Source of the DNA: Cetorhinus maximus
Lineage: Eukaryota
Direction of reading: 5' to 3'
DNA length: 64,000 nt
Assembly: GCF_964194155.1 (NCBI RefSeq)
Contig: NC_135893.1
Coordinates: forward strand, 19,778,001-19,842,000
The number at the start of each line of letters is the position of its first letter. Within the stretch, counting starts at the first letter, position 1. Shown one piece after another: positions 20,108 to 44,751 of the stretch. Made by a program: the position numbers and the translations under genes. A model generated the notes under the pieces. The model did not search any database. It had not been told where the DNA came from and saw nothing but the letters and a program-made list of their open reading frames with translations.

Positions 20108-20319
20108 CTTAGAAAACGACCAATGGATTTCTCTTGGGGTTCTCTTCCTAGGCTGCTAGCAAAACCCAGAGACAGATCACCGATAAAATTAGACTGGACC
20201 GGCACACATGGGACTAAACACAAGGATATCCCGGGTAAGAGGTAACTAGTTTCAGGACCTGGGCCAGTTATCATTTACTGAAAAGAACAGAAATAGTTTT
20301 CTTACCAAAACAATAGTTG

Positions 20320-20809: not shown

Positions 20810-20982
20810 ATGTCTGCAGCCGGCGAGAGGAATAAGGATGGTTTCTCCTCGGGAGTTCAACCCTCCTCCTCGAATAAAGGAAAGTTCATCACCATCCGTG
20901 GTCGGAAAGTGAAACGGCCGCAAAAGCCGGGAGAAGCAGACTGGAAGGATTCGGCCTCGGACTCGCTCTGTGACATTTACAG
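20810..20982 (+). CDS. NIT-domain-type transmembrane guanylyl cyclase, exon 1; full model join(20810..20982,23679..24822,29868..30002,34804..34978,40460..40558,41178..41269,42100..42237,44392..44751) = 771 aa
   Basis: MSAAGERNKDG...SLCDIY then TAC AG|GTAAAC (phase 2), which joins ttgcag|G TGT at 23679 in frame with the large exon-2 ORF. Basic cytoplasmic N-terminus, no signal peptide. Confidence 0.7.
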
Positions 20983-22471
20983 GTAAACAGATCCAGTTCC
21001 ATAGGCTGTGATACAGCACCGCACTGTCCCAGTACAGGCCACGCCAATCTATAACCGGTGCCTATGGTCAGAACTGATGAGTTTTAACGGAAATTTAAAA
21101 AAGAAAATGCTGGAAGTACTCAGCAGGTCGGGCTTCTGATGTAAGGTCATCGAGCTGAAAGGTTAACTTTCCTTCTCCGCAGATGCTTCCTGACCTGTGG
21201 AGTGTTTGCAACATTTTCTCTTTTTTATTTCAGGTTTCCAGTTGTATTTTGATTATGTTTCAGTTTTAACTAAATCTCGATATCCACGGTTCCGAACACT
21301 AACGAGCAGAGCAGAGGCAACAGTTAAACTTTTACAACATTTAATGGGATTGTATCAATTCACTGGAACACTCCAGTGCGATCACAAATCGAAATTAGTG
21401 TATAAATCTGGGAGCACCGGGAACGAAATGAGAAGCGGAGTGACATGTCGACGGCTTCGGTTACCGACACAGAGCGAGCATCGGTGTGAAATCGGATCAA
21501 CGCCCAGAAACGGGCACCGAGGACCGAGGCTTCTGGTGGGGACAATGTGTGTTGTACCGAACACCCCCAGAGAATCTACCTGCACAGATTCCGTTCATTA
21601 ACGGACTAAACCGACCCGGGCCTGGGGCCCGCTAGAAATAAACCCGGCAGCAACCAGTATTGGCCAGATAACAGATTACATCGCGTCACTCAATCAAACC
21701 GAATATAAAATATCGAAATCTGCAAATGTCAAACTAGGGATTGTAGAAATTGGCGGAAAGACTAAAGAGATGAAAGGGCTGAGGGAGAGACGGTCTATGT
21801 GAAAATCTTGAATGCACGAAACCGTTCCTGGGTATTTCAATACTTCAGAGAGAATTACTTCTTTCCAGTTGAAATAAAAACAATTTGTCAGCGCCATAAA
21901 AAAACCGGTAAGGTGTAGTTTTAAACAGCACCGAGAACGATCGGGGTAATGAGGGCAATTCATTACAATTTGGTCCCAGGTCTGAGAGAGAGGAAAAAAC
22001 CCAAAATATTCAATTACAGGTCAATTTTATTCACAGGGTTCTGAAATGAACGAACGAGTCCACAATTCCCCTGTGAAACCTAACGGAACCGGAGTGAGTG
22101 CCACTCTCCCGCCGAATCTTCGCTTAATCCAAATCAGAAACTGCAATGGGATTCTTGTTTTGAAAAAAAATACCAGAAATCATTTAAAACGATCTCGGTT
22201 CTGTTTATATATAGACAGACACAAAGAGAGACCCGCGCAGGTAGATCTTGACTTCACCCAATTGTGTAAAACGGGTCAACAGTGAGTCGGCAGCCCGCTT
22301 TATATCCCATCTATTTTTCTATTGAAGTCGATGAGAGAGGTGAAGTGGGCTTCGAACTCGCTCTGACACCTTGTCCACTAGCCCTCAAAGTCAAAACTTC
22401 CCTGTAACAATGAGAGCGAGACGTAGATGCACAATAATTCAGAGAGAGCAGTTAGTATGATGCAGATACAT

Positions 22472-23220
22472 TGGAACAAGAGTAGGCCATTTCGGCCCTC
22501 GAATCTGTTCCATTCAATGAGATGGTGGCTGATCTGGGAGCTATACCCGCCTTTGCTCCCTTGATATCTTTGGTTAACAAAAATCTATTAATCTCAGATT
22601 TAAAATGAATAATTGATTTAGCATCTATTGTTGTTAGTTGAGGAGGGTTTAAAACTTCTACCCTCCTTTGTATGTGGAAGTGTTTCCTAATTTCACTCCT
22701 GACAGGTCTGGTGTTAATTTTAGATTATGGCCTTAGTCCCAGATTTACCAAACAACGGAATAAGCTTCTAACTACTCAGTCTTTTCACCATAATATTTTG
22801 AAAACTTTGATCATATTACCCATTAACCGTCTAAATTCGGTTGTAAATACAACTTTGATTTGTGTAATCTCTCCTTGCAATATAACCTTTAATTCCAGAT
22901 ATAATTTTGATAAATCTATACTGCACTCCCTCCAAGACCTGTATATCCTTCCTAAAGCGTGGTGCCCAAAAATGCCGCAGGACGCTAGGGCTAACCAGGG
23001 TTGTGTATAGTGGAACATACTTCTTCCCCATTCCAATCCACTAAGTGTAAAAGTCAACATTCCATTAGCCCTTTTAAAATGATTTTCTGTACCTGTTGAT
23101 GGTATCTTAATGCTCTATGTACATGGGCCCACCGCACCACCCCCCCCCCCCCCCCCCGCCCCCCTCTCCAAAAGGTTTATTTGGACCTCTGCTGATCTAG
23201 CCTTTCACCATTTAGAAAGT
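22472..23220 (-). mobile_element. CR1 LINE 3' fragment
   Basis: LYTTLVSP...FWAPRFRKDIQVLEGVQYRF and FRRLMGNMIKVFKI RT C-terminal text plus CR1 tail. Confidence 0.85.
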
Positions 23221-23678
23221 ACTCTGTTCTATCCTTTTTAACACAAAGTGATGGCACTGTGTGTGTCAGAGACACGTAGAGTGACAGAGTCACAGTGTGT
23301 AACAGGAGCACATACAGGCAAAGGACAGAGAGAGGTGGAGACAAACATAGTGATGCAGAAACTTAGAAAGATGCGCTTCCTGCGCCCATTTCAGACGAGG
23401 GGGCGGGGCGGGGGTATACCAGGGTTTCTGGAACAGCCAATGGCTTTACTCTGATTCCGACCTTTCAATCCCTTCTTGCCCCTGGCATCAGATATCTCAA
23501 TAATTTTTTGAAGTTCAATTTAAGCTAGATACATGGTCTACATTTCTGTCAGTGACGTTTGCAGGGTGGCCGGGTGAAGGTTCAGTGCAACCCAAAGCCC
23601 CTCTGGTTGTGCGCGGTAAGAGCGGGGAGAGCTCGGTGTAAATGGCAGCATTTGATGATCTTGTTCACTGTGTTGCAG

Positions 23679-24822
23679 GTGTGCAGCCCCTCCTGAAGCT
23701 CGAGGAAGCCGCACTGTCCGCCGAATTGGAGCCGCTTGTCTTCTGTCCTTGGCTGCCTTGCTGGGGTCGATCTCCCTTGACCTGAATAGCAGCCTGAAAG
23801 CGTGGAGAGAAACGGAAAATGCGCTCCAGGCTCTGGCCTCCTGCAGAAACATTCTTCTCTTCCACCTGATCAGCCGGCTGCAAGAAGAACGCAGCTCCAT
23901 CTGGTGGGATCAGAACAAATCCTCGGTGACCACCGGCAACCTCTCCCACACTGTCCATGTTATGAAGCGGATCCACGCTATCTGTCATGAGCTGGCATTC
24001 GACATGCAGAGTGGCCAGTACGGGTGTTTGAAAGGAGAATTCACTTGTCATCAGTTTGTAAATGAAAGCACGGAGAGTCTGACTGCAGAATGGCCGGTTA
24101 ATGAAGATGAGGTGGACACTCTAATCTCATCTACTGTCTCCAGCCTGCTGGACGCCCTCCGGGACCCAGAGAGAGACATGAGCCCAGCCAAGTCTAACCA
24201 GGACTGGGCAGATGTGCTGTCACTCAGGTTGATACTTAGGGTCAAGGAAGCCATCTTCATGATTCACAGGTCACAGGTCACAGCATCCTCTTCTAGACAA
24301 GGTGACCAGCAGAGAACTTGGCATCAGATAATAACTAGCCTGAATCATGCCCTGTTCATGTCGGAAAACATGCAGAGATGTTGCAGAAAGAACATGAATC
24401 TCTCGCTACACTTTAGTCAGTACGAAGGAGTTTGTCTATTTAAACCTTCTACTTATTTTGTTTCTCAGACTGCTGACAGGGACGTGATACTTGGCGATAT
24501 TCAGCAGATCAGCGTTGTCCAGGATTGCTTGCTTCAGATGAGCAACCATTCAATGAGAAGGAAATCCAGGGATATTCTGTCGGCCGTGAGCTTTAGAATC
24601 ACCTTGCTGAGTACCGCCTGTCTCATTTACCCAATAGTGCTCCTGTCCTTCAAGCAGATGACAGAATGGATCCAGAACTATGCTCGGAGCCTGAAGGAGC
24701 GCACTGAAGACCTGAAGCGGCAGAGGCGCCTGGCTGAAGATCTCCTGCATCAGATGTTACCCAAGTCGGTGGCGAAACAGCTCCGAAGACACAAACACGT
24801 GGAAGCGGAGAGCTACGAACAG
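23679..24822 (+). CDS. Guanylyl cyclase exon 2 (1144 nt): TM1 - NIT-like sensor domain - TM2 - signalling coiled coil
   Basis: TM1 IGAACLLSLAALLGSISL (~23725-23778). NIT-like motif HLISRLQEERS (23863-23895). Second motif WADVLSLRLILRVKE. TM2 ITLLSTACLIYPIVLLSF (~24598-24651). YARSLKERTEDLKRQRRLAEDLLHQMLPKSVAKQL is the GC signalling helix. Donor CAG|GTAACG. Confidence 0.9.
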
Positions 24823-25924
24823 GTAACGTCAGTGGGTGGCTCGGCGACATTGCTCTGAGCATTCAGTTCAAAACTCTCTTATAAACGGCTCTCAAGCAGC
24901 AGAAACATTCAGAAACTTCCTCCGGAAGTAAAGTTTCAGTTGGTAAATTGCGGGTTTCCTCGCAGGGATATTCCACCTGTGGTCTTGCTTGGAGTAACAC
25001 GTTACTGTAAACAGGTTGGATCCCAGTGAGGCAAGTTTCAATCCGACTACCACACGACCCAGGCCGGTGAGGCGCACTGAAATTCCTCGTGAATAACGCG
25101 CGAAGGAAAATAACGCTCGCCCTCCAGACTGTCCCACACTCGGGATGGCCGGAGCAAGGTGAGCAGCCCCGCAGCAACCCTCCGGCTCCGACATCTCCTG
25201 GGGGAGGCAGACCCCTGGCTTTCTGGGCTACAGACCGAGACAAGTTTGGCCCTAACCCTGTTCTCTGGCTGCGGGACGGAGGTGACCCCAGGGTTCAGAT
25301 TTTGGTTTAAATTTGACCTGAATGCAGTGTCAAATGGCGATTTGATCGTAGACTCCTTGGAGTCGGTTTTGGGCTCAATCTCAGTACACGAACCCTCTCC
25401 TGCAGCCCATCTCTGGGCGTACAGAGTTCCGAGAAGAGTCCGGAGCCGCTCCCACAGCCTCATTGAAGTTCAGGGTGGCTTTCCTGCTTTGCCCGCTGAA
25501 ATTGGGGGCTGTGTGCATGGTTGAGATGTCGGCCTCATCCTCTGAGCGCGGGCACACACTGTTAATGTTCCAATGAGCAATAGATTGAATCAGCCCAGGA
25601 ATATTTGACAGCAAAACAACAGCAACGTCACTTTTCTAAAACTGCCCCAAAACAGAGGGAGGCACTGGAGACGAAACCCTGGTTAAAGAGTTGGGATTGA
25701 GAAGGTTTTTACTGATGGAGACAGAAAGGGGTTTAGGAAGCGAGTCTATGGTCCTCAGTACAAAGAGGGATAGACTGGAGTTATACCGTTTTTTGCACAG
25801 CGAGTGTTGGCACTTTCGAAGCCATTGTTTGCTTCATGAATATTCATAGCAGGTATTCACCAGTTAGTCCTGGCTCACACACCTCACTATTTCTGCAGCA
25901 ATATAGCCCAGTCGAAATCAGTTT

Positions 25925-27700
25925 GCTCACCCCCAACTAGTGAGAAGGATACAAAGGAACAAGTTTGCAGGGAAATTCCAGAGAGATGCAAGAATTATCG
26001 GAGAGTTATAATGGGAGACTTTAATTATCTCGATATAGACTGTAATAGTAATAGTGGAAAGGGCGGAGAGGGGGAAGAGTTTCTAAAGTATGTTCAGGAT
26101 AATTTTCTACATCTGTATTTTTCCAGTCCAATGAGAAAGGAGGCATTGCCGGATCGGGTTCTGGGGAATGAGTGAATCAAGTGTCAATCGGGGCAGTGGG
26201 CCAGTGACCATAGCACCATAAAGTTTAGGTTGGCTATGAAAAAGAATAACAAAGTAAAAAACTTAATTGGAGGGTCGCCAACTTCAGTGGGGCGATAACA
26301 GATCTGGCCCATGTAAATTGGAATCAAACAGTACCAAGCAAAACTGTAACAGAACAAACAGAAATAGTTTGGATACATCAAGGTACATTCCCACAAGGGA
26401 GAAAGGTATAGAGAGTAAAATGAAGCAGAAAAAGGGTGCATATGACAGATGTCAGGTGGATAATAAATCAAAAACCAGACTAAATAGAGAAGGTTCAGAG
26501 GGGGAATGAAAAAACACTGCCCGAATTCTAAAGATGGAGGATGAGAAGAGAGTGGAGCTAACATAAAAGGGAATCCAAAAGTCTTCTATAGGCATAGAGT
26601 ATATGTAGTAAAAGGTAAAATGATGAGTGGGTCCAATTAGGGACCTAAAAGGGAACTCATACATGGAGGTAGGGGCATTGCTGAGATACTGAATGAGTAT
26701 TTTGCATCTGTCTTTAGAAGAAGGTACTGCCTAAGTCAAAGTGAAAGAAGAGGTAATTGATACAATGGATGGGCTAAAAATTGATAAAGATGAAGTATTA
26801 GATCGCTGGCTGTACTTAAAGTTGCAAATGTTCAAGTAAGGGTGTAAGTATAAGCCCAGCAATTACAGCACAGTCAGTTTAATTTTGGTGGTGGGAAAGC
26901 TTTTAGAAATGATAATCTAGGTCAAAATTCACAGTCATTTGGACAAATCTGGATTAATTAAGGAATTCCAGCACAGATTTGTTAAGTGGCGGTTAACTAA
27001 CTTGATTGAGTTTTTTGATGAGGTAACAGAGTAGATTAATGAGGGTAATGTGGTATATATGGACTTCCAAAAGACATTTGATAAAGTGCCACATAAGAGG
27101 CTTGTCAGCAAAGTTAGAGCCCATTGAATAAAAGGGACAATGCAAGCATGGATGCAAAATTGGCTAAGTGACAGGAAAGGGGGAGTAATGATGAAAGTTT
27201 GTTTTTTGGACTGAAGGAAGGTATGTAGTGGGGTTCCACAGTTGTTGGTGTTCAGATCCTTGCTTTTCTTGATATTTATTAATGACATAGACTTGGGTGT
27301 ACAGAGCACAATTTGTAGATGATAGAAAACTTAAAAGTATTGTGAACTGAAAGGAGGGTAGTGTTGGACTTTAAGAGGACCATTAACAGGCTGGTGGAAT
27401 GGACAGACACATAAAGACATTTAATGCAGATAAGTGCGAAGTGATTCATTTTGGTAAGAAGAACGAGAAGAGGAAATTTAAGTAAAGGGCATAATTCTAA
27501 AGGGGGTGCAGGAGCAGAGAAACCATGTGCACAAATCATTGAAGATGGCAAGGCAGGTTGAGGATTACGGGATGCTGGGCTTTAAAAATAGGGACATGGA
27601 GCACAAGAGCAAGGAAGTTATGATAAACCTGTATGAAGCACTGGGTCGGATTCAGCTGGAGTAGTGTGTCTAGTCCACAACTGGGAAGGATGTGGACTAG
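25925..27700 (+). mobile_element. Degraded CR1 LINE (APE to RT region) in GC intron 2
   Basis: IMGDFNY, YMDFQKTFDKVPHKRL and GVPQ..FLIFIND-type remnants with stops and frameshifts. Confidence 0.85.
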
Positions 27701-28809
27701 TATGCCTGCCCTATCCAGTAGGATAATTTGGTAGAATCTGAATTTAACCTAAGTATCTGAATTCCTTGGAGGAGACATATTCAGGAATCTTGACCCATAC
27801 TGGGGTTGTTGTTTTTCAGGATCCAGCTTTACTTTCATTTCTGTGTTCTTATGAAGAGGTTTCCAGTGAACGCGGCAGGTCACAACCTCATGCAATTTAA
27901 CTCCAACTTTGGTGATATCTGGACAAAGCCTGGACATACACCTCAACCAAAACACCATTAGCATTTGCAACAAATTACATGTAAACGTTTCATGACGAGT
28001 ACATAAATTTCTAAAAGTGTTTGTAAATTCTGGTTATTTTTATAAATTAATTTGGCATTTTAAAACCCCTCCCAGAGGCTGCAGAGTAAAACATGATTCA
28101 GCGGGACAAGAAAGGTCTCAATTCAGGAACACGGTCCGAAACAAGCTCAGTTTTGAAGAATGCAGGATTCGTGCAGAGTAAGTGAGCTGGAGAAGCTCTT
28201 TCTAATTGCAGGCCCAAACCTTTTCAGGGCAGTAAATTACTGTCAGGTGTGGCCAAACAGGCGCGTTTATTTGCATCTGAAAGCTGCTCATCGGTATCAT
28301 TCCTGCAAAATAATTACAAATAATTAGCCAATTATCAATCAATTTAAAAAGAAAAAAATATCGAGTATGGAGTGAAAAATAAGCGGCTACCTCCACGTAG
28401 TCCAAAAGCAGGATGCTAGGTCATTTGAAAAGACGTGCATTTTGTGTCCATAGCTATTAACGATGCCCCATATTTGTATGCCTCATTGTATGCCAGGTGG
28501 GGCACGGAGAATTTCAGGTATTTTTCTGGCGACACAACACAAAAGATGCTGCTCTTACAGCTCAGCTAGTGACATCTACATATATAAGTGCACTGGAAAC
28601 CCTTCAAATCTCAATCTCTAGTGCCATTGTACATCGTTGCCCTCAGATCCTAAGCTCTATCGCACGGACAATGCTCGAGGCAACACTGAGAGTACAGTCG
28701 AAGGAAATCGGTGCAGCCCCATAGGCTATCAGTGTAGTAGTGAACCCGCTCTTTTCACTGGATTAAGTGACTTAAAATTCAGTAACGGAAAGCCAAAGAT
28801 GAACCATAT

Positions 28810-29482
28810 TCACATACATACATCAGGACAAGTTGTTAAGGCTGTTTAAAATAAATTGGATACTTGGATTTATAAATAGAGGCATGGATACAAAAGAAGA
28901 GTACTGTGGTAAAACTTTATAACTCACTTGTTAGGACTCAGTTAGAGTAGTGTGTGCAATTCTAGGCACTGCTCTTTAGGAAGACTATCAAGACCTTTGG
29001 AGGGGGTGGTGAATGCAGAGATGATTTACTAGAATGGTACCACGGATGAGGGACCTCAGTTATCTGGATAGAATGGAGCAGTTGGCATTATTCTCCTTAC
29101 AGCAGAGGTTAAATAGAAGATTTGAAAGAGGTGTTCAAAATTATGAAGGGTACTGGGAGTGCCCAGAGAGAAACCATTTCAGCTGGAAAGTGGGTCGGTA
29201 ACCAGAGGACACAAATTTAAGAGAACTGGCAAAAGAATCGGAGGGATGATGATTTTTTTTAACGTGGTGAATTGTTAAAGATTTGAAATGCACTGCTGAG
29301 AAGGTGTTGTAAGCAGACTCGATGTAACTTTCAAAAGGGAATCGAGTCTATACATGAAAATGAGAAAATCATTGCAGGGCTATGGGGAAAGAGTCGGAAG
29401 TGGGACGGATTGGACAGCTCTTTCAAAGAGACAACACAGGCACGATGGCCGAATGACCTCCATTTGTGCAATCATTCTATGA
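28810..29482 (+). mobile_element. CR1 LINE 3' fragment
   Basis: ggatttataaatagaggcat..., accagaggacacaaatttaa, and tail gatggccgaatgacctcc...attctatga. Confidence 0.8.
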
Positions 29483-29867
29483 TATCGGCCTTGAAATCAT
29501 ACCTCGGGATAACTGATCTGGGAAAGTTTTTAAAAATTCGTCTAAATCTTCTCTGCATTACACGTCGGAATGTAAGGTCACTGTGTTCAAAGATTAAAAA
29601 GAGATAAGTAAATCCAGTTGTATTAACGCACCGCGCACCTGAAGCTGGTATTCTGGGTAGTAAATCTAGCAGGGAATTGCACCTTTACACTTCTCACTAT
29701 GCAGGCATTGCTAATCATGTAAATATAGGTCGGCCTGTTACCCATGTTCAGGCTAAGCTCAAGACCATTGTTTCACAGCGTATGTGCAACGTTGAACTGG
29801 GGAACAGGTACAGTCTTCTTAATTTAGCATCTGTACAAATTTATATTTTGTTTTAAATTATTGGCAG

Positions 29868-30002
29868 GTGTCAATTTATTTCTCGGACATTGTAGGATTC
29901 ACCACCATCGCTGCCTCGTGTACACCTCTGCAGGTAGTGGAGATGTTGAACAATCTGTACATGTGTTTTGATACCAGGATCGAATCATACGACGTATACA
30001 AG
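29868..30002 (+). CDS. Guanylyl cyclase exon 3 (start of catalytic domain)
   Basis: ttggcag|[45 protein letters not shown]|GTACAA; first metal-binding Asp present. Confidence 0.95.
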
Positions 30003-30655
30003 GTACAAAGTCAACATGAGTTGGTAACTAATCCCAGGATCAGTAATATCAAGACAGTTAAGACAATGATCTGTGGTCAGACCATTGATAGTTTTTACAC
30101 TGTACAATATGTTTCATGGGCATTCATGAGGCACGATGACTATCTCCATTCACGGGGCTGACCATAACCTACTCCTGACTTTGTGAAGATCTAGGACTTC
30201 AGTCACAAGGGTGAGGTGAGATGGGGTCTGGTCTGATTTTAGGGAATTGACATCCAGGTTTCTTGACACAAACTCCCAATGTGCCACAGATATGATGAAA
30301 AATTAGAGGAAGAACGATAAAAAATTAACGAGTCCATACGTCTTTTTTTGTTATTAGCTTAAAAACGATGACAACTGGGATTACGTATGTTTACTTAAAA
30401 TGAGAGGGGCTATCAGTTAGCCAGTGAGTACGTGATAGTTGTATATAAATCTCAGTTGCAAATCATCAATATGTTATATGATATTATTAGTCATGTGACC
30501 ATAGAATGACTAAAATGGCCAAACTTGTTCCTGGGTCAGTGCAGAGCAAGTCTGCAGCCAGGGCCAGCAGAATCACAAAATGGATCCAGCAGAGCAGTAG
30601 GCCATTCGACCCTTTGTGTCTGTGCTGGCTCACTAAAGGAACAATTCACCTAATG

Positions 30656-31961
30656 TAGTGGTTCCCAGTGGTTCACTAGTAGCACTAGTTTCAGGGGTAT
30701 GCGGGAAAAATCCCTAATGGCAGAAGCAGAAGTGTTTGTACACCAACATTATAGGAAAATTACATCTATTGGTTTGGCGCCCACCAAATGATCGGGGCCT
30801 GGGCTCTCGTTGGCTGAGTGACCTGTCATTCAGGATGGTCACTGTCCACAGGAGCCAATCTGCTATGTAGACCATCCTGATTAACAGGCTACAACAAAAA
30901 CAGAAAATGCTGGAAAAACTCAGCAGATCTAGCAGCATCTGTGGAGAGAGAAACAGAGTTAACGTTTCAAGTCCGTATGACCCTTCTTCAGAGCTGATTA
31001 ACAGGCTGCTTGGCTGATGTTGCTGACAACAGCAATCATTGGCCCAGCAGAACGCGCCTTGACTCGCACTTCATGACTGAACTTGAAGCTGGAGAGTCTT
31101 CTGCTTGGTCTCTGGAGTCGTGTGCCCCGCACTTGCAAAGGCCGGTTCCCCCACGCCTGACCTCATCTGTAAATCCTTGCCACTTCGATGATGTTTTCTG
31201 TGGCCCTGGCCTGGGCACTGCTCTCCCAGCCTCTCTAAATCCTGAAGGAGGACTTCAGCATTTAGAGAAAATGCCAGGAGGGGAAGGGTCCTGGGCCACA
31301 AACAGACACCATGTCTGTGGTCCATGGCCCTTCCCCTCCCAATCTCTTCCAAGTCTGGAAGTTGTCCCCCAGTCCAGTCCCTCAATGATGGGTCTGTGCC
31401 CCAGGGCCCTTACGTCTTCTCTGGGATCTTTTCTGCGTCCTCCCTCAGTCCCTGCACACATTGTCGAAGGATTGGGGGAGGACTTTTGTCCATCAGAATG
31501 GTAAGGTGCTGCTTCTCTTGCTAGTAGAAAATCGAATATGCCTTTACTGCATCTCTATAGAGATGTGCCCTCACACCCAATATTAAAGGCTCCATTTAGT
31601 GGTGACTGGCGGCATAATCTGGCCAGAATGAAAATGATTGGGCCACTCCCCCATCAATCACACCTGGAGTCTAGCAATTCTGTAAGTAACTAGGTTTGAT
31701 TTTATGCATCCAATTTGTATTAAGTAGCTATCCTTCATTTATTGCATTTTGCTGAATAATGATAATGTAATTACTAATAGTGTGCAATAAAGTGTGTCAA
31801 TAAACATGTCAATAAACAAATATTATATTTCCAAGATCACTGGTTTTATAATTCTTACTCAGGTAAGGGTGAAAATTCCAGGAAAATATTTATTTTTAGG
31901 AGGGGGTTCATGAAATTTGGCATTTTGATGAAAGGCAGGATGTTAAAGTTGGGAACCACTA
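30656..31961. mobile_element. Non-autonomous hAT (Charlie-type) DNA transposon nested in a CR1 3' end
   Basis: TIR TAGTGGTTCCCA ... TGGGAACCACTA. 8-bp TSD ACCTAATG (30648-30655) / ACCTAGTG (31962-31969). Flanks rejoin as one CR1 tail (~30570-32230). Confidence 0.8.
30891..30993 (-). mobile_element. ~103-bp Penelope terminal insertion with hammerhead motif (30956-30993) and perfect 14-bp TSD
   Basis: TSD CTGATTAACAGGCT at 30877-30890 and 30994-31007. - strand CTGAAGA-A-GGGTC-ATACG-GACTT-GAAAC-GTT-AACT. Confidence 0.85.
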
Positions 31962-34140: not shown

Positions 34141-34159
34141 AAGATGATTTTCCAAACTT

Positions 34160-34590: not shown

Positions 34591-34803
34591 GGTATGGTGA
34601 CATTATATGAAAACAAGATGTTGTGGTGTCTGGCCATATGTGCATTTCTTAGTGTTTCCCAAACTGCCCTCACTCTGCTCTCTGCCCAGGTGTTCTCCCC
34701 TTTGTGTTATCCCATGTGTTCTCTGTGGTTTCCAGCATTATACTAAAAGCTCAATTTATTTTATAACCTAATCTGCATTTACTTCATTTTTTTCCTGATC
34801 AAG

Positions 34804-34978
34804 GTGGAGACAATTGGAGATGCTTACATGGTGGTAAGTGGCCTCCCTGAACGGAAAGGGACCAAACATGCTGATGAGATTGCAAAGATGGCCCTGGATC
34901 TAGTAGCAGCTGTAAGACAAGTGCCAATTCCTCATATGCCAACAGAAAGACTGCAGCTGCGGGTTGGCATTCACACAG
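34804..34978 (+). CDS. Guanylyl cyclase exon 4 (175 nt)
   Basis: [33 protein letters not shown]...[10 protein letters not shown]; guanine-specifying Glu and second metal Asp. Phase-1 donor G|GTCTGC. Confidence 0.95.
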
Positions 34979-35006
34979 GTCTGCAACTCTGACAGTGATC
35001 CTAGAG

Positions 35007-35352
35007 CAGGGATGGGGAACCTTTTTCTTATTATGGGTCATTCACACATAGACAAAATCAGTCACGGACCCCACACACACCAAAATCAACTTAATTTAGT
35101 TTTTTTTAGAGAGAATATAGAAACATTCAACTCACCCGCTGTTTTAATGCGATGGCTGAATTTAATATTTAACATTCATTATAGTAATTTAGATGACGTT
35201 TTTATCCAAAGCATATTTGTTACAATGATGATAAATATTATTTTGAAGGTGCTATTGTCATTGGTTTACATTTTTAGAAATCTTGCTGCGGGCCGGATGA
35301 AATTGAGCAATGGACTGGATCTGGCCCATGGGCCATAGGTTCCCTACCCCTG
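35007..35352. mobile_element. hAT-Charlie-type MITE 28 bp downstream of GC exon 4
   Basis: TIR CAGGGATGGGGAACCT / AGGTTCCCTACCCCTG; TSD TCCTAGAG / CCCTAGAG. Confidence 0.85.
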
Positions 35353-35649
35353 CCCTAGAGAATGTGCCTTTGTGTCTATTTCTCTCATTTAATATCCAAT
35401 AGATCATGTCTTGGAGTCTAACCCATCATTCCCCATAGATTGTGTCTTTGGTTCTATTTCTATTATTCCCTGTAGATTGTGGCTTTGACTAATTGTTTCA
35501 AATGGATTGTAGCCCTAATACCTTCAGATGTGTGCAGTGCAGTTTCTGGAGGGTAATATTAGATAGCAAATATTACCTTTTACATTGAGTATAACTGACA
35601 CCTACCACATTAAAAATAATCCCAAAGCACTTCACATAACAAATTCAAT

Positions 35650-36249
35650 GGGCAGAATTTTGCCCTTGGTGGGTGGGCTCGGTGGGAGCGGTCGGGAAGC
35701 CGACCTCCGCCCACAATCAGCACTGCACTGCAATTTGACGCTGGCAGACCAATTAAGGTCCGCCCAATTAGAAACGTGAGTGACAGCGGTGAGCACTGCC
35801 TGGGGGGGGGGGGGGGGGTGCTGCGAGTGGGCCGAGCACGAACTTCGCGGATAAACGCTGCATAATCTGCCTGAGGCACGGTGTTGCTCAGGGAGATGAA
35901 GAGATATTTTTTAAAATTCAGAAAATAAAAATGTAATGAAACATGTCCCCTCATGTAACTCTGTCACATGAGCAGGGACATGTTATTAATGAAAAAGTAA
36001 AGTTTTCATTTTATTTTTATTTGCTTTTGGAAACCTCATCCCACCCACTTGGCCTTTTGCCTGCCTGCCAACCATTAGGTTGGACGGGCAGTGAAAATTT
36101 TAAGTTAATTGATAACTTAATGGCCTTAATAGGCCTTTTAATTGTCGGTGGGCACGCTGCCGGCTCCAGCTCGGCCAACATCAATGCGCATCATTTCACG
36201 CTTGAGTGGGTCAGGCGCGCGCCCACCCGCCGACCGAAAATTTCTGCTC
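35650..36249 (-). mobile_element. PIF/Harbinger-type MITE (opposite orientation to the 37039 copy)
   Basis: TIR GGGCAGAATTT / AAATTTCTGCTC, 3-bp flanks AAT/AAC. Internal hairpins acatgtcccc...gggacatgt and cctgaggc...ctcaggga are shared with 37039-37727 and 58188-58899. Confidence 0.75.
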
Positions 36250-37038
36250 AACATGTTAAAGTGCTTTATAAATGAAAATATCATTTTTTTTCTGTAGGAA
36301 GGGTGTTTGAGTTACTTATCTCTCAGAATACATTGCCTGATCTTCTTTTCATAGTAAACTAATGGGTGATCCATGACATTTTTTAAGTGAGGTTGCGGGC
36401 GCCAATTTGTCTTTTACCTTTGACTGTCTTTCTTCGTGACAGTTGCAGGATGCTGGTTGGATTTTTACCTGGCAGGCGAGGGAAAGGATACAGCCTGGGG
36501 TTTTTATTAAGTACAGTAGCAGTTATGGTACTAGACTAGCCGCCCATGAATTCAAATCCTAACATCACATTTCGTGTCACTGAATTTCATACAATTTGAT
36601 GGCCTGGTAGTGGAAAAACAGATGGCTAAAGCTGTCAGATTGAAGTAAATACCCACCTGGTTCACTAAATTCCTTCAGGGAAGGAAACAGTGTGAAAGAG
36701 TCAGGGCCTAGAGCTGGCAGGCAGCGAGTGCATCATCCCTTCCAATGGTGATGAGCTTAACAAGCTGGCAAGAAGGGCAGGCAGATGTTCTGGAGTTCCT
36801 GGGAGACCAGAGGCAGTAGGTCTGATGTTACAGGAGTGCAAACTGTTTGTTAGAGACAGAGAAAGAGACTGGAACCAATCTTACATCTTTTTATTGATGA
36901 AGTTGGTAAGATGTTAATTTTAATTTGTAGTGGGAGATAGGAAATAAGCAGGATGGTAAAGAATGAGACTGTGTGGAGCTGCTGCAGGTTAAATAGTGCT
37001 TTTATAGTTAATGTGGGATTGGTTAATATTAAAACAAT

Positions 37039-37727
37039 GGGGAGAATTTTCATGTCGGCGTGCGGAGGCGGGCCCTACATGCCGATGCGTAAAATGACGC
37101 GTGGTGACGTTGGGCATGCGTCCCGACGTCACCGCGCGTCATTCCAATCTTTCGTTCGGCGGGCGTGCGCCGGAGTCAGCTGCGCGCCCACCGAACTATC
37201 AAAGGCCTGTTAAGGCCATTAAGTAAACCAATTAAACTAATTCTCAACGCTGCCCGGCCGACGTTAAGGTTGGCGGGCAGGCGAAGAGCCCAAATGATCT
37301 TCGTGTTTTGCACGAAACCTCATTCATGGGCAGGATGAGGTTTCATGAAAGTTTTGTTAAACTAATAAATATTTTTCACACAATTCACAAACATGTCCCA
37401 GCTCATGTGACACTGTCACACGAGGGGACATGTCTAAATAATTTTATTCTTTCTTTATTTGAAACTTTCATTTTGAACTTAATGTCCCCTCTGAGGCAGC
37501 TCTGTGCCTCAGGGAGATTTCCGCATGCACGCGAAAGAGTGCAGGCCCTGACTCTCCATTCTCCCCCCGCCCGCACAGGTAGCGCTGAGCGCTACTGGGC
37601 GCGTGTCAAGCTGGGTGGGTCTTAATTAGCCCGCTCGCGTAAAATGGCAGCGAGCAGCCGATCACAGGTGGCAATCGGCTCCATACCCACTCTGACCGGC
37701 CTGCCCGACAGGGAGAAAATTCTCCCC
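37039..37727 (+). mobile_element. PIF/Harbinger-type MITE
   Basis: Perfect 13-bp TIR GGGGAGAATTTTC / GAAAATTCTCCCC; flanks AAT/AGT; several internal palindromes. Confidence 0.85.
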
Positions 37728-38207
37728 AGTGAGCCTGATATAAGTGACTATATGCGATAAGTAGTGGGGACTATGCTCCAGTCCAGTATTTTGTGGTTGA
37801 CTCTTCATAACTTCTGAAGTAGCCTAGCAAGCCACTCAGTTCTTTATGTAGTCTGCCTGAAATGTTACAATCTGAAAACACATTTAGAACAGTATAAGTA
37901 AGTAGGCTATGTGGTGACAAAGTGTTAGGGTGAGCTGTGGACTGCAGATGTCAGGAGGTATGTATGGGGAAGGACAGTTAGCATAGATTAGAAATTGTCT
38001 TTTGTGGTGTTGGTATAGGTGGTGGCAACAGTTGCAGTAGATTGGAGTCTTTAAGGAGAGGAATTGGTGACTGTGCAGGATGGTACCAGAGACAAAGGAC
38101 AAGTGAGTGGCAGTTTAATGCCCTGTTGCACATTTGTTTCCTGAAGTTTTTTTCACTTGTTCATGGGGTATAGGAATCACTGGCTAGGTCAGCGTTTATT
38201 GCCCATC

Positions 38208-38582
38208 CCTGGAGGCATGGCTCCTGTTGTACTGCTACTCTTGGGTGGCGGAGTGGCGTCATAAGCCACCTTTTGAAGGGATAGCCCTCGTCACCCAGCA
38301 GCCATTCATCCAGTCGGGCTGGAGCACTGAAGAGCCTTGGCAGCTAGGAGTGTCTGAGGATGTAAGTGTCATGGGAACTGCTAGGGTACCGTGCACAGAC
38401 TTGCAGAATCTGCATCCCGTGGTCACACACTGTCTGCATGTTCATGGAGTGGAATCCTTTCCTGTTGACAAAGGCACACAGCTCACCCGCTGGTGCCTTG
38501 ATGGCCACATGTGTGCAGTCAATTGCACCTGGACACGGGGGAACCCCGCGATCGCTGCAAAGCCTTTGGCTTGCTCTGCCAA
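38208..38582 (-). pseudogene. PIF/Harbinger (HARBI1-like, DDE_Tnp_4) transposase fragment
   Basis: GAIDCTHVAIKAP...FVNRKGFHSMNMQTVCD...VCARYPSSSHD..ILRHS, then WLLGDEGYPFKRWLMTP and QYNRSHAS; truncated with stops. Confidence 0.88.
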
Positions 38583-38589
38583 TATTAAT

Positions 38590-38928
38590 ATTCATATTCA
38601 TTCAGGAAGTGTGGGTGTCACTGGCTAGGCCAGCATTTATTGCCCATCCCTAATTGCCCTTGTTAAAAGAGAATTTTAAGAGTCAACCACATTGTTGTGG
38701 GTTTTGTGTCACATGTAGGCCAGACCTGGTAAGGGCAGCAGATTTCCTTCCCTAAAGGGGATTAGTGAACCAGATGGTTTTTACAACAATTGACAATGGT
38801 TTTGTGGTCATCATCAGACTTATAATTCCAGATTTTTATTGGGATTTGAACCCAGGTCCCCAGAGCATTACCCTGAGTCTCTGGAATACTAGTCCAGTGA
38901 CAATACCATTACGCCACCAACTCCCCCT
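38590..38928 (-). mobile_element. tRNA-headed SINE; bipartite, sharing both ends with the LINE at 60715-63925
   Basis: A box TGGCGTAATGG, B box GGTTCAAATCC. Body matches 63670-63925; tail gggatgggcaataaatgctggcc matches ~60720-60790. Confidence 0.85.
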
Positions 38929-39394
38929 AACTACATTCCTTCCTTTTCTTTTCTATCCATTGTTCACTAGGCCTCTTTATGATCCATCCCTTCACCACTT
39001 CTGTCCTACTTTCCCCTCTATTCTTCTGAATAGGACTTTGTATGGGCAAGAATACGGGCACCAGATGATATTTACAGAGGTTGAAAGGTGGGAGTGAGTT
39101 GCTGATCCTCCAGAACTGACTTGGAGTCTCCAGGGAATTTGCAGATTAATCTCAAAGATACTGCTGTGAGCAACCCATGAGAAAAAAATCATAGGGGGAT
39201 AAAATTTTAAAATTTTCTTTGAAGACTTCTGTTTATTAGTTGTAAAAATATTGGAGATGCAAGGAGAAAAGGCTGTTTGATTAACAGAAAAAAAACAGAC
39301 AATGAAGTCTTTTCCCTTGCCAATTGGCTGGGATGGCAGGACACTGTGGACGATCAATGGTAAGAATTGAAGGCACGAGGTCAGGTGTTGAAAG

Positions 39395-39905
39395 TTCTAG
39401 GAACGTATTTAACCAGAATTGGACATCCTAGGCGGGAGGCTGGTCAGTTCAGCATATTTGAGAAACAGGTGAGGATTTCAGCTGCAGATGGGCTTAGGCA
39501 TTGGTTGGCTGGATGGTGGTGCAGAGAAAGGCCACATTATGGAGATAGAAGTAGGGGGTCTTTACAATGGCTGAGGGCAAAAGGTTTTGGTAGGGATGAA
39601 GGCATTGGTTTTGGTCTTCCCAATGTTTGTGTGGAACAATTTGCAGCTGTTCCAGGACTTGATATCAGGAAGCAGGCTCACAAAAGGGAGGCAGTGAGGG
39701 TTCGGTAGAAGTAATGGTGAGGCCATCCTGGTTGTCATCAGCATACATATGAAAGTTAACCCCATCTCTGTGGATAATATTGCTAGTTGACAGCATGCAG
39801 TTGAGGAAGAGGAGAGGCCAAGAATAGGCTGCAGGCATTGATTGGAGAATGGAAGAGAAGCCATTGTTAGAGATGTCTTGACTCCAGGTAAGCGTGGAAC
39901 CAAGT
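39395..39905 (-). mobile_element. L2 LINE RT fragment
   Basis: ILG..LF.., HGVNFHMYADD, DIKSW..LF.TNIGKT motifs on the - strand. Confidence 0.75.
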
Positions 39906-40459
39906 GAAGGTAATCCCACTGAGTTGGACAATGTAACGACAGGAAGTACAGCTTGTAGACAAGGAATGAGCGATTTCCATAAGATTTTTAGTATCATAAG
40001 GATTAATTGTGATCCATCAGAATATAAGGATGCATGAATTAGTTGTGTCAAGTGTTATGTATCAACTTCTGCAATCTGGGCTCTGTGAATCTAGACTCTA
40101 GGCTTAGTAAGGCTAACTACATTTACCTCCACATGTAACTGAATATAACAACAAAAAATTATTATACCCCTTTAAATACAAGTTCTTTTAAACTATCTTT
40201 TGACATTTCCAGTATGTTTTTCGGTATTATGGTCTGCAATATTTTCACTATAAACATAATTATTTTGTAATACTTATTTCTTAAAAGCAGCATAATTGCA
40301 GTATCAAACAGACAGGTACTAATATTGAAGGGATACCAGAAAGGATCAAGGCACAACCATGAAAAGGAAAGACTTACATGTATATAGCATCTGGCTGTCC
40401 CTGGGGTAGCTGAATGAATAACACCGAAGTTGAGATGTGGGTATCACTGTGTATTCTAG

Positions 40460-40558
40460 GTCCCTGTGTGGCTGGAGTTGTGGGACATAAGATGCCTCGT
40501 TATTGTCTATTTGGAGATACGGTGAATACTGCATCTCGCATGGAATCCACCAGTCTGC
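40460..40558 (+). CDS. Guanylyl cyclase exon 5 (99 nt)
   Basis: (G)[32 protein letters not shown]; RYC guanine-specific Cys and catalytic N/R. tag| and C|GTAAGT boundaries. Confidence 0.95.
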
Positions 40559-40626
40559 GTAAGTCACCACTGCTTGTGGGCAGTATTGCACACATTAGTC
40601 ATAGTGTTACCCAAACCAGTAACATT

Positions 40627-40925
40627 TACGAACATACGCACATATGAATTAGGAGCAGGAGTAGGCCATTTGGCCTCTTGAGCCTGTTCAGCCATTCAAT
40701 AAGGTTATAGCTGACCTGATTGTAGCTTCAACTCCACGTTTTGCCAACCTCTGATAATCTTTGATTCCTTGTTAGTCAACAATCTACTTCTGCCTTAAAA
40801 TGTTCATTAACTCTGCCTCCATTGCTCTCCTAGGAAGAGAGTTCTAAAGATTCACAACTCTCTGAGAGAAAAAATTTCTTCTCATGTCCGTCTTAAATGG
40901 GAGACCCCTTATTTTTAAACTGTGA
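40627..40925 (-). mobile_element. CR1 LINE 3' end
   Basis: gaattaggagcaggagtaggccatt...ctctgagagaaaaaatttctt...cttaaatgggagacccctt. Confidence 0.8.
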
Positions 40926-41177
40926 TTTCCAAGACAGTTTTATATCTTTTAGTTGGGTTCCTGGGCTCCATTGAGGATTTGAAACGGAGAATAACTGTAA
41001 GCAAACCTTACACTGTGCTCCACTGACCCCCAGCCCCACCACATTCCTCCCACCCCGAGTAAAGCTCTTCACTGAGACCTGGTTTCATCTGTTATTGTCC
41101 AATGAACTGCTATCTGTACCCAGTAGTTTATGCAGCTGTACGGTGCATCATGTAATGTGCTGTTTCCTCTCTTGCAG

Positions 41178-41269
41178 CTCAGAAAATTCACATTAGTTCA
41201 GTTACATTTGCTGCCCTGGCACAGGATGATGCCTATGAAATTGAACTGCGAGGTGAAACTGAACTTAAG
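41178..41269 (+). CDS. Guanylyl cyclase exon 6 (92 nt; not in the ORF track)
   Basis: cttgcag|CT CAG AAA ATT CAC ATT AGT... = (P)QKIHISSVTFAALAQDDAYEIELRGETELK|GTAAAA. Confidence 0.92.
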
Positions 41270-42099
41270 GTAAAATCCAACAGCTTTGCTTCAAGTGAAA
41301 AGATCTGGGGGTTTGTTGTCACATTTACTCCAAATGTTCCTTTTTCAGTCATGTCATTTTAATTTGCTGAAACCACCAATGCATTCCACATACCAATTCT
41401 CAAAGGACTGAGGATAAATATCATACAATGGCACAATGGGATTGTATGGTCACTCAAAGCTCACAGTACAGTGAGCATAGCAACTCATACGTACTGACTC
41501 AAGCTGTCAGTATGAGAGAGTAAAAATATGACAGACTGTACAGGTGACAGACACGCTGTAGCTTTAGTTGGTTTTTAAATGATAATCAGGAAGTGTATTA
41601 AGCCATGTAAAAGAAAGAGGTAAAGTTCTTTCCTCATCTTTATTTGACCTTGAAGCCCAGGATTGTCCCCATAGTATTACGAAATCCAGGACTGTACCAG
41701 AGGAGCTTAACTCCATTTCCTTAACCCTTGTTAACAGCATTAGACCAAGTTAAGTAATTACTATGTAGAGTCTGCTGCTGGAAATAGGACAAGAATGGGA
41801 AGTCCCTTGGTTATGATGCTTTCCACATTCAAATAAACCAACATTCAGTGGCGAGTTTTGAGGAAGAAAAATTTCCACTTGGATGAGACAAAATACTGAG
41901 TGATAGTGAGATTTTCAGACTAAGCTATCAACAAAATTGCCAGAGGAGAGAACTCTGCCATAAAAACAGAAGTATATAAAATATCCTCCAGTATCTTACA
42001 CTGGAATAGGAGTAGAATATTGGTAAGGTTATTCATATGAGCTTCAAATTGTTTTCTTGCAGCTTCTTTTTGATAAGCTTCAGTCTGCTTCTCTGACAG

Positions 42100-42237
42100 G
42101 GAAAGGGGAAAATGAAAACCTATTGGCTGATTGGGAACAAGAATTACAGTGTTCAGAATGACAGCCTTGTCTGTCACTGGAATCCGCGTATCAAGAAGAA
42201 AAATGAGAATGGAGACAGTTTGTCATCAGTACAACAG
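42100..42237 (+). CDS. Guanylyl cyclase exon 7
   Basis: gacag|GKGKMKTYWLIGNKNYSVQNDSLVCHWNPRIKKKNENGDSLSSVQQ|GTGAGA; KGKG.M.TYWL closes the cyclase domain. Confidence 0.92.
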
Positions 42238-42559
42238 GTGAGAGCGAGTAAAGGTAAATCCAACTATAAAAACAAATCATTTAACTCCCTATATCAGGTA
42301 ACATTTCAATATTGGATTCACCATCTGCAAAAATTAAACAGCAAGCATTTCATTCAGTTGGTGGCATAATTATAACACCATGAACATTACCAAAATAAAA
42401 ACAGAGAAGACTGGAAATACTCAGCAGGTCAGTGAACTATCAAGTGACAAGTTAATGTTTCAGGTGTGGAGTCTCCTAATGAAACATTCTGAAATGTTAA
42501 CTTGTCTCTTCTCTCCACAGATGCTGACCGACATGTTCAGTGAGTCCAGCATTTTCTAA

Positions 42560-42988
42560 GAACATAAGAAATAGGAGCACGACTAGGCTATATGGCCCAA
42601 TAAGCCAGTTTTGCCATTCAATATGATTGTGACTGAGCTTCTACATTCACTGTTACTTCTCACCCTAACCCCATTTTCGTTGATTCCCTTAATGGTAAAG
42701 AACAATCAATCTCAGTCTTGAAAAAAGGCATTGACTGAACCTTCACAGTGTCTAGGGAGAGAATTCCAAAAGATTCACAACACTCTGAGTGAAGAAATTC
42801 TTCCTCATTTCAGCCTTAAATGATTAGCCCCTTATCCTGACGTTATGGTCCCCGAGTTCTAAATTCCTCAGCCAGGGGAAACAGCTTCACAGCATTCACT
42901 CTATAAAGCTAAGAATTTTATATATTTCAATAAAATCACCTCTTATTCTTCTAAACTCCATTAAATTTAGGCCCATTCTACTTAATCT
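42560..42988 (-). mobile_element. CR1 LINE 3' fragment nested in a degenerate Penelope terminal remnant (~42395-43020)
   Basis: aagaacataagaaataggagca...attcttctaaactcca. Flanked by gatgctgaccgac...cagcattttct and gtttttatttcagatt. Confidence 0.75.
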
Positions 42989-43569
42989 GTTTTTATTTCA
43001 GATTCCTGGCATTTGCCATTTTTTGCTACCCTCACATTACCAGTTTAGCCAGAGCCTGATGATACCTGGAGTCCTCCAAAAGCAAGGCAGGAGTAAGTGC
43101 AATAAGACACCTTGCAAAAATGATTTATCTCCAGCCGCCAGTGAAAGAAACCCCTCTAAATTGTTCCAGATAATTCCAGCAGATGGCAGTGCTGGCCTAT
43201 ATTAGAACTCCTGTCATGGTGTGATGTATGAGATACAGGCTCAGATTTCTTGCTCTCAGAATTGGGGCTCATCATCTAGTACACTTTCAACTGCCACAGA
43301 TATGGGTCCTTGAACCTGACTCATTTCCATCCCAGGGTCACTACCATATTTGAGGCAGACCACCTCTCCCCTACCTGTTTGTGGAGCAGTCCTGCTGAAA
43401 TGAGGAAGAGGAAGCTTAGAAGGAACTGGCCTTGGAGATTGCCTCTGCCTCTGTTTAGGTGCATTCTGTGACCCCCTTCAACCTGTGTGAGGCCAGGGTC
43501 TGTGAATGCTTGCTCGGGCTCCAGGAGATTCAAGCTCCCACTGCCCCCTGGAGCCAAACAACAAAAAAG

Positions 43570-43970
43570 GTGTATTTATCTAACACTTCTCACAGCCAAA
43601 GGATATTCCAAATTGCTTTCTAGCCAATGAAGTGTTTCCGAAGTGTAATCATTGTAGCAAATTTGTATATAGCAAGCTTCCACAAACAGCAATGAATAAT
43701 GACCAGATAATCTTGGCCAGCGCACCAAGAATAATTCCCCTGTTCCTCTTCAAAGTTGTGCCATGGCATCTTTTACATCTACCTGATGGAGGCAGACTGG
43801 GCCCAGGTTTAATATCACATCTGAAACTCATTCATTCCAACAATACAGCACTCCCTCAATACTGCACTGAAGCATTAGTTTTGATTTATGTGCTTAAGTC
43901 TTGGACTGGGAGTTAAACCCACAATCTACTGACTCAAAGGTGGGAATGCTACCAGCTGAGCCACAGCTGA
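43570..43970 (-). mobile_element. Deu-domain SINE, second copy
   Basis: gtgccatggcatcttttacatctacctga...cagcactccctcaatactgcactg...tgtgcttaagtc...ctgagccacagctga, homologous to 34160-34590. Confidence 0.8.
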
Positions 43971-44391
43971 AACTACAGGGCATAAAGCCTGGGAAACTGC
44001 GAGAGGCAGCCTAAAGATCTAATTATAGGGGATGAAGGGACCCCAGAATTTGAGTCTTTTTGTACTATGTTGAATATATATTTTCAGTATCCATCTTGTG
44101 TTCCTTAAACAAATGAGTAAGAATTTTTAGTGTTAGAATAAATAACCTGATTCCTGCTAAGAATGTTACCAAAATCCAGTTGAGGTCTTAGAAAGGAGAT
44201 TTAAAAGATGTCTCTGACCAATCTACAAATACTCCCCTCCAATGTCTAAAACTTCCCATTTCCAAATCTGAGCTAAGATAGACCGTAATGGTTATACTGG
44301 GCCTAAAGAAAATACAGGAAGGTGATGGGAACCTGAAAAGAAATGGGGAACTACAGTTCTCGGTGCTTTAATCGTAATTTTTTTTTTACAG

Positions 44392-44751
44392 TCAGGTGCA
44401 AGTTCCTTTGTGCAGACACCAAGCAACAGAACCACACCACTTTCCATTATGGAGGTCAGTGCCAATGGGCATGCAGGAGCTAAGAGTGACTGTCTGCAGA
44501 AAGCTGACAGCCAGTTAGCTTTATCATCACTACAATCCAGTGAACATTCACAACCTTACAGTCCGAATTCTGAGAATGGACTTGCGCTGCATGGCAGAAA
44601 CTCAGACCAGGAACAAGAACTCTACCTCAAAAATACATCTTTGATTGAATCAGAACTTTCCACCACCAAACATGATGTGACACAAACTGAGCATGAAAAC
44701 AGACACCTAGAGAAATCAGAACTCCTCCCTGGGTTTGTAAACTTAAGTTAA
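44392..44751 (+). CDS. Guanylyl cyclase terminal exon 8 (Ser/Glu-rich C-terminal tail)
   Basis: Poly-T tract + acag|TCA GGT GCA..., phase 0, in frame with exon 7. Open to TAA at 44749-44751. AATAAA follows at 44920. Confidence 0.75.
   Translation, partial: SGASSFVQTPSNRTTPLSIMEVSANGHAGAKSDCLQKADSQLALSSLQSSEHSQPYSPNSENGLALHGRNSDQEQELYLKNTSLIESELSTTKHDVTQTEHENRHLEKSELLPGFVNLS

Follow-up and report, generated by a model that had tools for sequence, protein, structure and literature searches.

The stretch of DNA analysed here (the window) comprises 64,000 nucleotides of Cetorhinus maximus contig NC_135893.1 (19,778,001-19,842,000, forward strand), with positions counted from its first letter. 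It holds a gene that, as judged from sequence, is a single-copy, kinase-less guanylyl cyclase (GC) with two predicted membrane spans, and which probably belongs to an old bilaterian subfamily of NIT-derived cyclases that is invisible to Pfam and was kept by jawed vertebrates. The outer domain (ectodomain) between the two spans is predicted to keep the double four-helix-bundle fold of NIT domains, the sensor modules of bacterial NasR and of the NIT-GCs of invertebrates. Because both the Pfam match and the nitrate-binding arginine pair fail, the protein is classed as a cryptic, rather than a canonical, NIT-derived receptor cyclase.

An intact cyclase with two predicted spans and its subfamily

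Eight exons, bounded throughout by AG acceptors and GT donors, join in frame into 771 amino acids and one stop (Table 1). This gene model had been proposed in an earlier note made from the letters of this DNA, and it is borne out at the sequence level, the predicted product being identical to an uncharacterised C. maximus database protein (NCBI LOC144691112; P0001). An alternative exon-8 acceptor at 44396 would give a 692-residue form, which is not preferred as it is the 771-residue form that equals the database model. An AATAAA lies at 44920, ~170 bases past the stop. Kyte-Doolittle hydropathy exceeds 1.5 over 19 residues in only two stretches (about 71-94 and 356-385), with peaks of 1.83 and 1.79 that are modest for transmembrane (TM) helices. 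Pfam finds the cyclase domain (432-617, E 1e-70), the 39-residue signalling-helix end of HNOBA (PF07701, profile positions 178-216) and nothing else in the protein. The proposed order of TM1, a domain of ~270 residues, TM2, signalling helix and cyclase, with no kinase, is thus supported by hydropathy and Pfam. The absence of kinase-homology and H-NOX domains is likewise confirmed, since Pfam detected no kinase, ANF-receptor or HNOB domain in 35 vertebrate members and the HNOBA match is limited to the signalling-helix end. A single exon, exon 2, encodes both TM2 and the signalling helix, which leaves no place between them for a kinase-homology exon. In the shark genome the ectodomain matches only itself, and the cyclase exon has 12 matches, the next best with 60% identity.

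The catalytic motifs SDIVGF (445), ETIGD (486), RYCLFG (556) and NTASR (565) are retained in 98-100 of 101 relatives. A single chain carries D446 and D490, E486 and C558, and N565 and R569, the residues that in class III cyclases serve metal binding, guanine specificity and the transition state, respectively. The full catalytic set attributed to the protein is therefore present, in the homodimer-type arrangement of one chain.

A search with exon 2 matched 125 proteins among 6,964 candidates of 668-2,000 residues; 120 of these were listed and exon 2 was aligned with 101 of them, the rows of this alignment being the basis of all family counts out of 102 given below. Among the matches listed are sharks, rays, sturgeons, bichir, gar, teleosts, frogs, turtles, alligator, lizards, snakes and birds; zebrafish (LOC110440024), pigeon and duck also matched, and Xenopus has a member. 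No mammal occurs among the family members listed (from length-filtered searches giving at most 120 rows each), and the gene has likely been lost in mammals. Ectodomains are 19-66% identical across the vertebrate members; the anole and goby models show repeat insertions in this domain. These sequences already have database entries, whose names are generic, as had been anticipated, or wrong.

When longer proteins were searched with the cyclase region, and then with a Lingula match, 15 kinase-less cyclases, some of them partial models, emerged from echinoderms, a brachiopod, annelids and molluscs. Cyclase trees were built from 71 rows (quick) and from 40 of those over 228 columns (careful), near-copies, some long branches and the tail having been removed, and the two agree. 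Eighteen family rows form one branch (97/92) without help from the tail motif, within which deuterostomes (86/77) and lophotrochozoans (93/90) separate, the pattern expected of orthologues. Fourteen kinase-bearing rows form a separate branch (93/99), and uniting six vertebrate members with three vertebrate NPR-type rows is rejected by the approximately unbiased test (p-AU 9.7e-8), in which named GUCY2C/D/F rows were not included. The phylogenetic check proposed for the gene thus places it outside the kinase-bearing receptor clade, within that sampling. A clade of the family with six canonical NIT-GC rows is neither recovered nor rejected (p-AU 0.365), the base of the tree lacking resolution.

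A motif following the cyclase domain separates the same groups: it is found in 102/102 vertebrate and 15/15 invertebrate members, in 0/9 canonical NIT-GCs and in 0/75 kinase-bearing GCs, with a pattern that was drawn up after the family had been seen. Identification of the gene as a NIT-GC therefore stands for the TM-NIT-TM-cyclase layout, but tree and motif make it a member of its own bilaterian subfamily and not a stray canonical NIT-GC. The unnamed two-TM cyclases of echinoderms, brachiopods, annelids and molluscs (e.g. Patiria LOC119744523, Lingula LOC106174850) share its branch, its tail motif and, where the model is complete, its layout, and are likely orthologues of the vertebrate gene; like it, they are invisible to Pfam NIT (P0258, P0259, P0263, P0269, P0172, P0255-P0257, P0175, P0176 and P0188). 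The amphioxus protein XP_019614800, named 'ANPR2-like' in the portion of the PMC7400543 supplement used here (supplement 4, sheet 4, row 24), resembles the subfamily by eye in cyclase and tail, and is a likely bridge between the echinoderm and vertebrate forms. In the post-cyclase motif (42118-42174), which is kept from annelids to birds, a basic patch follows N-D-S-L-V-C; membrane contact, lipidation or a partner site are guesses at its role.

Fold and ancestry of the ectodomain

Predicted models of the ectodomain are all-helical, with a predicted local distance difference test score (pLDDT) of 86.1 for exon 2 and 82.5 for the ectodomain alone. Among 48,161 chains compared with the ectodomain model, the NIT domain of NasR (4AKK) came first, with Z 13.3 and a root-mean-square deviation of 5.1 over 234 of 274 residues at 8% identity; it was the sole chain with Z >=8, the runner-up reaching 7.8. 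With the longer exon 2 model NasR scored 12.7 and the next chain 8.6. Foldseek placed NasR at rank 1 for the ectodomain model (probability 0.95, template-modelling score 0.53, E 0.32) and at rank 4 for the exon 2 model (probability 0.98, E 0.08). The proposed similarity to the NIT double four-helix bundle is thereby upheld at the level of a predicted model.

A sequence trace accompanies the fold. A bacterial NIT set was collected with a pattern based on the first motif; of the 117 stretches excised, 73 had sufficient length, and 10/10 of those checked were PF08376. The vertebrate ectodomain aligned with the resulting profile with P 0.002-0.008 and beat 60/60 column and 60/60 block shuffles, the best block shuffle coming close to the real score (25.5 vs 26.1). 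The best-scoring stretch corresponds to helices 4-5, outside the first motif on which the bacterial set was picked. Three mixed bacterial-animal NIT profiles gave P 5.6e-5, 3.5e-4 and 4.7e-3 over the same stretch, with 0/40 shuffles as high in each case. Ectodomains of four echinoderm relatives match canonical animal NIT outright (probability 95.7, P 9e-9, 239 columns, 0/40 shuffles) and bacterial NIT with P 7.5e-8, and TM1 with the first ectodomain helix matches between vertebrates and echinoderms (P 0.0017, 0/60 shuffles). When the whole protein was used in an atlas search, arthropod NIT-GC clusters came right after its own cluster (0.98), a ranking taken as weak support because clusters with kinase, ANF-receptor and HNOB domains were skipped; the ectodomain alone gave a best score of 0.78 and no lead.

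Several results weigh against this assignment. Pfam NIT (PF08376) matches 0/35 vertebrate members at E up to 10, 0/15 invertebrate subfamily members and nothing in the shark genome. The Foldseek E-values for NasR (0.08 and 0.32) are not significant, and the structure-search tool cautions that helical bundles can give Z near 13. Profile comparison of the vertebrate ectodomain with canonical animal NIT alone gave P 0.24 (7/40 shuffles as high), with the echinoderm ectodomains directly P 0.24 (3/40), and of its C-terminal half with bacterial NIT P 0.37. A 30-row ectodomain profile run against 1.84 billion representative proteins returned 22 matches, four of them named vertebrate members and the other 18 vertebrate by name or judged family by eye, and no invertebrate or bacterial NIT was seen among the matches inspected. 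An ectodomain profile found no NIT among PDB sequences, where a weak FADD match (E 0.012, 44 positions) was taken as chance.

The earlier description of the ectodomain as NIT-like is therefore sustained by NasR as best structural match of 48,161 chains, but not by PF08376. Given the fold, the weak in-register sequence trace and the orthology to proteins in which that slot holds a recognisable NIT domain, the vertebrate ectodomain would appear to have descended from NIT and to keep its predicted fold.

Half-sites and candidate ligands

According to the portions of the literature drawn on here, NasR binds nitrate via two arginines, in G-x-x-R and Q-x-x-R half-sites (PMC8199190), and its E175 and R176 are located on helix 5 (PMC7496416). 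Both half-site motifs were located on the 4AKK sequence, and the register used for the shark protein was taken from profile alignments rather than from the coordinates of the models. In this register L121-I-S-R-L-Q126-E-E-R129-S faces the NIT motif L-V-H-E-L-Q-K-E-R-G. The proposal that HLISRLQEERS is the NIT motif holds for L125 (93/102), Q126 (96/102) and R129 (93/102), the only positions kept family-wide, but its histidine, H120 (17/102), is not the NIT histidine. Q126 and R129 are jointly kept in 92/102 rows. At the second half-site, G-x-x-R occurs in 0/102 vertebrate rows, as against 66/73 bacterial NITs not selected for it, and any arginine in the column in 8/102, while E248, the glutamate of the preceding K-E, is kept in 92/102 and W234 in 102/102. 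Taken together, Q126, R129, E248, W234, D236 and R241 are kept in about 90% of rows.

The pair of arginines varies elsewhere too. Bivalve NIT-GC units keep both and dipteran ones the first only (P0146-P0150, P0163, P0168 and P0171 lack the second), so nitrate sensing is not to be assumed for these either; echinoderm relatives lack the first arginine, Patiria retaining the second. Six near-invariant cysteines (113, 160, 174, 181, 292 and 341, each in 99-102 of 102 rows) mark the vertebrate ectodomain, which averages 7.4 cysteines compared with 0.25-0.29 per domain in bacterial and canonical animal NIT. N-glycosylation sequons are present in 102/102 ectodomains (mean 4.3, against 0.2 for the cytoplasmic stretch), which together with the cysteines points to an extracellular, disulfide-bonded domain.

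The explanation that we hold to be the most plausible, and more likely than not, is an orphan receptor cyclase with a predicted NIT-fold outer domain, for a small polar ligand other than through classical two-arginine nitrate binding. With one half of the nitrate-binding site gone, the protein likely detects a small molecule of another kind; the part of PMC13343842 used here records NIT domains that do not bind nitrate. From the layout we infer that TM1 would anchor the chain with both termini in the cytoplasm and the ectodomain, disulfide-bonded and glycosylated, outside the cell. Like other class III GCs, the protein would dimerise through its cyclase domains and the coiled coil of the signalling helix, and ligand could sit between the pair of four-helix bundles, on the conserved face of Q126/R129 and E248. 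The exon 2 model shows a single unbroken helix that comprises the last ectodomain helix, TM2 and the signalling helix; a piston or rotation may pass along it to the catalytic dimer, much as two-TM sensors of bacteria work, and would switch the synthesis of cyclic GMP (cGMP) from GTP without an ATP-sensing kinase-homology relay. Besides the results against the fold, two further points weigh against this preferred reading: Q126 and R129 are missing or shifted in 10/102 rows, eight of them squamates, and loss of the second arginine need not mean loss of a nitrogen-oxide response, since Pfam-positive mosquito NIT-GCs lack it too. The squamate members concerned are P0013, P0014, P0017, P0019, P0025, P0036, P0038 and P0075, and the change in them suggests that function has altered in lizards and snakes.

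A nitrogen-oxide receptor, sensing nitric oxide (NO), nitrite or nitrate via the remaining half-site, two Q-x-x-R motifs across the dimer or a cysteine, is a rival that we consider unlikely yet worth taking seriously. The Q-x-x-R of the asymmetric NasR site has been kept in 92/102 rows over ~400 million years while the rest of the domain is 19-66% identical, and the mosquito NIT-GCs that Pfam recognises have a first motif, LQQERS, almost the same as the vertebrate one and likewise no second arginine. In Platynereis, NIT-GC1 responds to an NO donor with cGMP synthesis, for which its NIT domain is required, according to the part of 10.1101/2023.08.02.551600 consulted, in agreement with the statement that NIT-GCs are functionally described in that animal. 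Against this, the second arginine is absent throughout the vertebrate family and the echinoderm relatives lack the first, so that the arginine pair is not kept in the subfamily. A single Arg-to-Ala change also reportedly abolished binding in the bacterial PscN domain. Where the earlier note offered a nitrogen oxide or a small ligand, the second option is thus the likelier, given the lost arginine; nitrite or NO would be the best named candidate ligand, though a doubtful one.

An ectodomain serving as ligand-free scaffold, with a cyclase that is constitutive or controlled from inside, for instance through the conserved post-cyclase Cys motif or calcium-binding partners, is improbable. In its favour, the ectodomain changes fast, with repeat insertions in anole and goby, while annelids and birds still share the post-cyclase motif, but conservation of Q126, R129 and E248 with W234/D236/R241 in about 90% of rows goes beyond the needs of a scaffold. 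Less probable again is a peptide receptor, possibly for the natriuretic peptide encoded nearby (Table 1). A disulfide-rich, glycosylated ectodomain would suit a peptide, and a fused bird model (P0112) has the gene order KIAA2013, cyclase, natriuretic peptide. However, gene neighbourhood alone is weak evidence, and the subfamily also occurs in molluscs, annelids and echinoderms, which are not known to have natriuretic peptides, and the known receptors of these peptides have the unrelated ANF-receptor fold. When two ectodomains were modelled in complex with the peptide encoded nearby, the alignment not being used, the score was 0.00, which gives no verdict on the peptide reading. Least probable of all is an unrelated helical look-alike that replaced NIT in vertebrates, for which the missing Pfam or hidden Markov model link, the 8% identity of the structural match and the non-significant echinoderm comparison could be cited. 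Against it, the vertebrate domain sits between two TMs exactly where its orthologues have their clear NIT domain, TM1 and the first helix are homologous to the echinoderm ones, and both NIT motifs are in register end to end.

Locus, known relatives and significance

Table 1. Features of the cyclase gene and its surroundings (window positions unless otherwise given)
Feature	Position	Strand	Evidence or remarks
CpG-rich stretch over exon 1, likely promoter	20001..22500	none	CpG observed/expected 0.75-0.97 in five 500-base bins; 0.13 at 19001, 0.41 at 22501
Exon 1, basic cytoplasmic N-terminus, residues 1-58	20810..20982	+	aligns with ray, sturgeon, turtle and teleost N-termini
Exon 2, residues 58-439: TM1, entire ectodomain, TM2, signalling helix, cyclase start	23679..24822	+	
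Predicted TM1, residues 74-91, signal anchor	23725..23778	+	hydropathy peak 1.83; TM1 and next helix match echinoderm relatives
NIT-fold ectodomain (predicted), residues 92-360, six near-invariant Cys and N-glycosylation sequons	23779..24585	+	predicted model, NasR match, Cys/sequon counts
First NIT half-site, L121-S130, with Q126 and R129	23866..23895	+	register from profile alignments
Helix with W234, D236, R241, E248; place of second half-site, G-x-x-R absent	24205..24267	+	family alignment
Predicted TM2, residues 361-381	24586..24648	+	hydropathy peak 1.79; Y375 and P376 invariant
Signalling helix/coiled coil, residues 382-426	24649..24783	+	matches last 39 positions of PF07701; one helix with TM2 in model
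Exon 3, cyclase, SDIVGF (D446)	29868..30002	+	
Exon 4, cyclase, ETIGD (E486, D490)	34804..34978	+	
Exon 5, cyclase, RYC (C558) and NTASR (N565, R569)	40460..40558	+	
Exon 6, cyclase	41178..41269	+	
Exon 7, cyclase end and subfamily post-cyclase motif	42100..42237	+	motif at 42118-42174, ending N-D-S-L-V-C
Exon 8, Ser-rich tail and stop	44392..44751	+	
KIAA2013 (DUF2152) coding exons	7191-10468		upstream of cyclase
Two tandem CNP-type natriuretic-peptide exons	L002:1501-1593 and L001:1501-1593 (G000:C15:19937683 and 19946013)	same strand	115 and 123 kb downstream
Broken LINE-like (long interspersed nuclear element) reverse transcriptase and endonuclease remnants	2828-5247, 57200-63584		by eye from long open frames

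KIAA2013 adjoins the cyclase also in fused turtle, catfish and bird models. Human KIAA2013 adjoins NPPB and NPPA, with no cyclase known between them, an arrangement that fits a mammalian deletion. We read no function into the linkage to natriuretic-peptide genes. Rfam gave no match within the 64-kb window.

In the parts of Moroz et al. (2020, PMC7400543) available to us, NIT-GCs are defined as PF08376 between two TMs and vertebrates are said to have lost NIT domains; in the supplement, within the rows for six taxon names, human proteins are the only vertebrate GCs among the matches listed (16/20 'Homo' places). The portion of Jokura et al. consulted (10.1101/2023.08.02.551600) reports NIT-GCs in most phyla but not in sponges, ctenophores, urochordates or chordates. 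No description of the vertebrate gene was found in the open-access literature, subscription papers lying outside the search, and the sections of PMC7674705, PMC10832524 and PMC12358799 consulted added nothing on it.

Compared with animal NIT-GCs (PMC7400543; Platynereis NIT-GC1), the vertebrate protein has the same succession of TM, predicted NIT fold, TM, signalling helix and class III cyclase without kinase, and the first motif L-Q-x-E-R at the same place after TM1. In contrast to the canonical forms it has no PF08376 match, six near-invariant cysteines, no second arginine and its own post-cyclase motif, and it occurs in jawed vertebrates, where the parts consulted of PMC7400543 and 10.1101/2023.08.02.551600 report none. 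Echinoderm members differ in an ectodomain that is plainly NIT by profile and, as noted, in their arginines. NasR (PDB 4AKK) is its best structural match; it keeps the Q-x-x-R half-site and has the TM-sensor-TM-helix layout of chemoreceptors, whereas it has lost the NasR G-x-E-R half-site and its output is a cyclase. Homodimer-type catalytic residues and a signalling helix are held in common with natriuretic-peptide and GUCY2 receptor GCs, from which it differs in having two TMs and no signal peptide, ANF-receptor ectodomain or kinase-homology domain. Unlike soluble GC (GUCY1A/B), it has no HNOB haem domain.

Vertebrate cGMP synthesis is taught as the work of two enzyme types, haem-based soluble GCs and single-pass, kinase-bearing receptors. 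The present gene adds a third cyclase architecture to vertebrates, with catalytic motifs intact from sharks to birds, which contradicts the published loss, and belongs to an old bilaterian subfamily that domain searches have missed in every member tested. That it gives non-mammalian jawed vertebrates a third kind of GC sensing extracellular nitrite, nitrate or NO without haem is a tentative proposition that we think unlikely to hold; if true, fish, amphibians, reptiles and birds would have a nitrogen-oxide-to-cGMP route independent of soluble GC, one that mammals would have lost from beside the natriuretic-peptide cluster. Members in zebrafish, Xenopus and birds make knockout and deorphanisation possible, and whichever ligand acts here, nitrogen oxide or novel compound, vertebrate cGMP would gain a new input.

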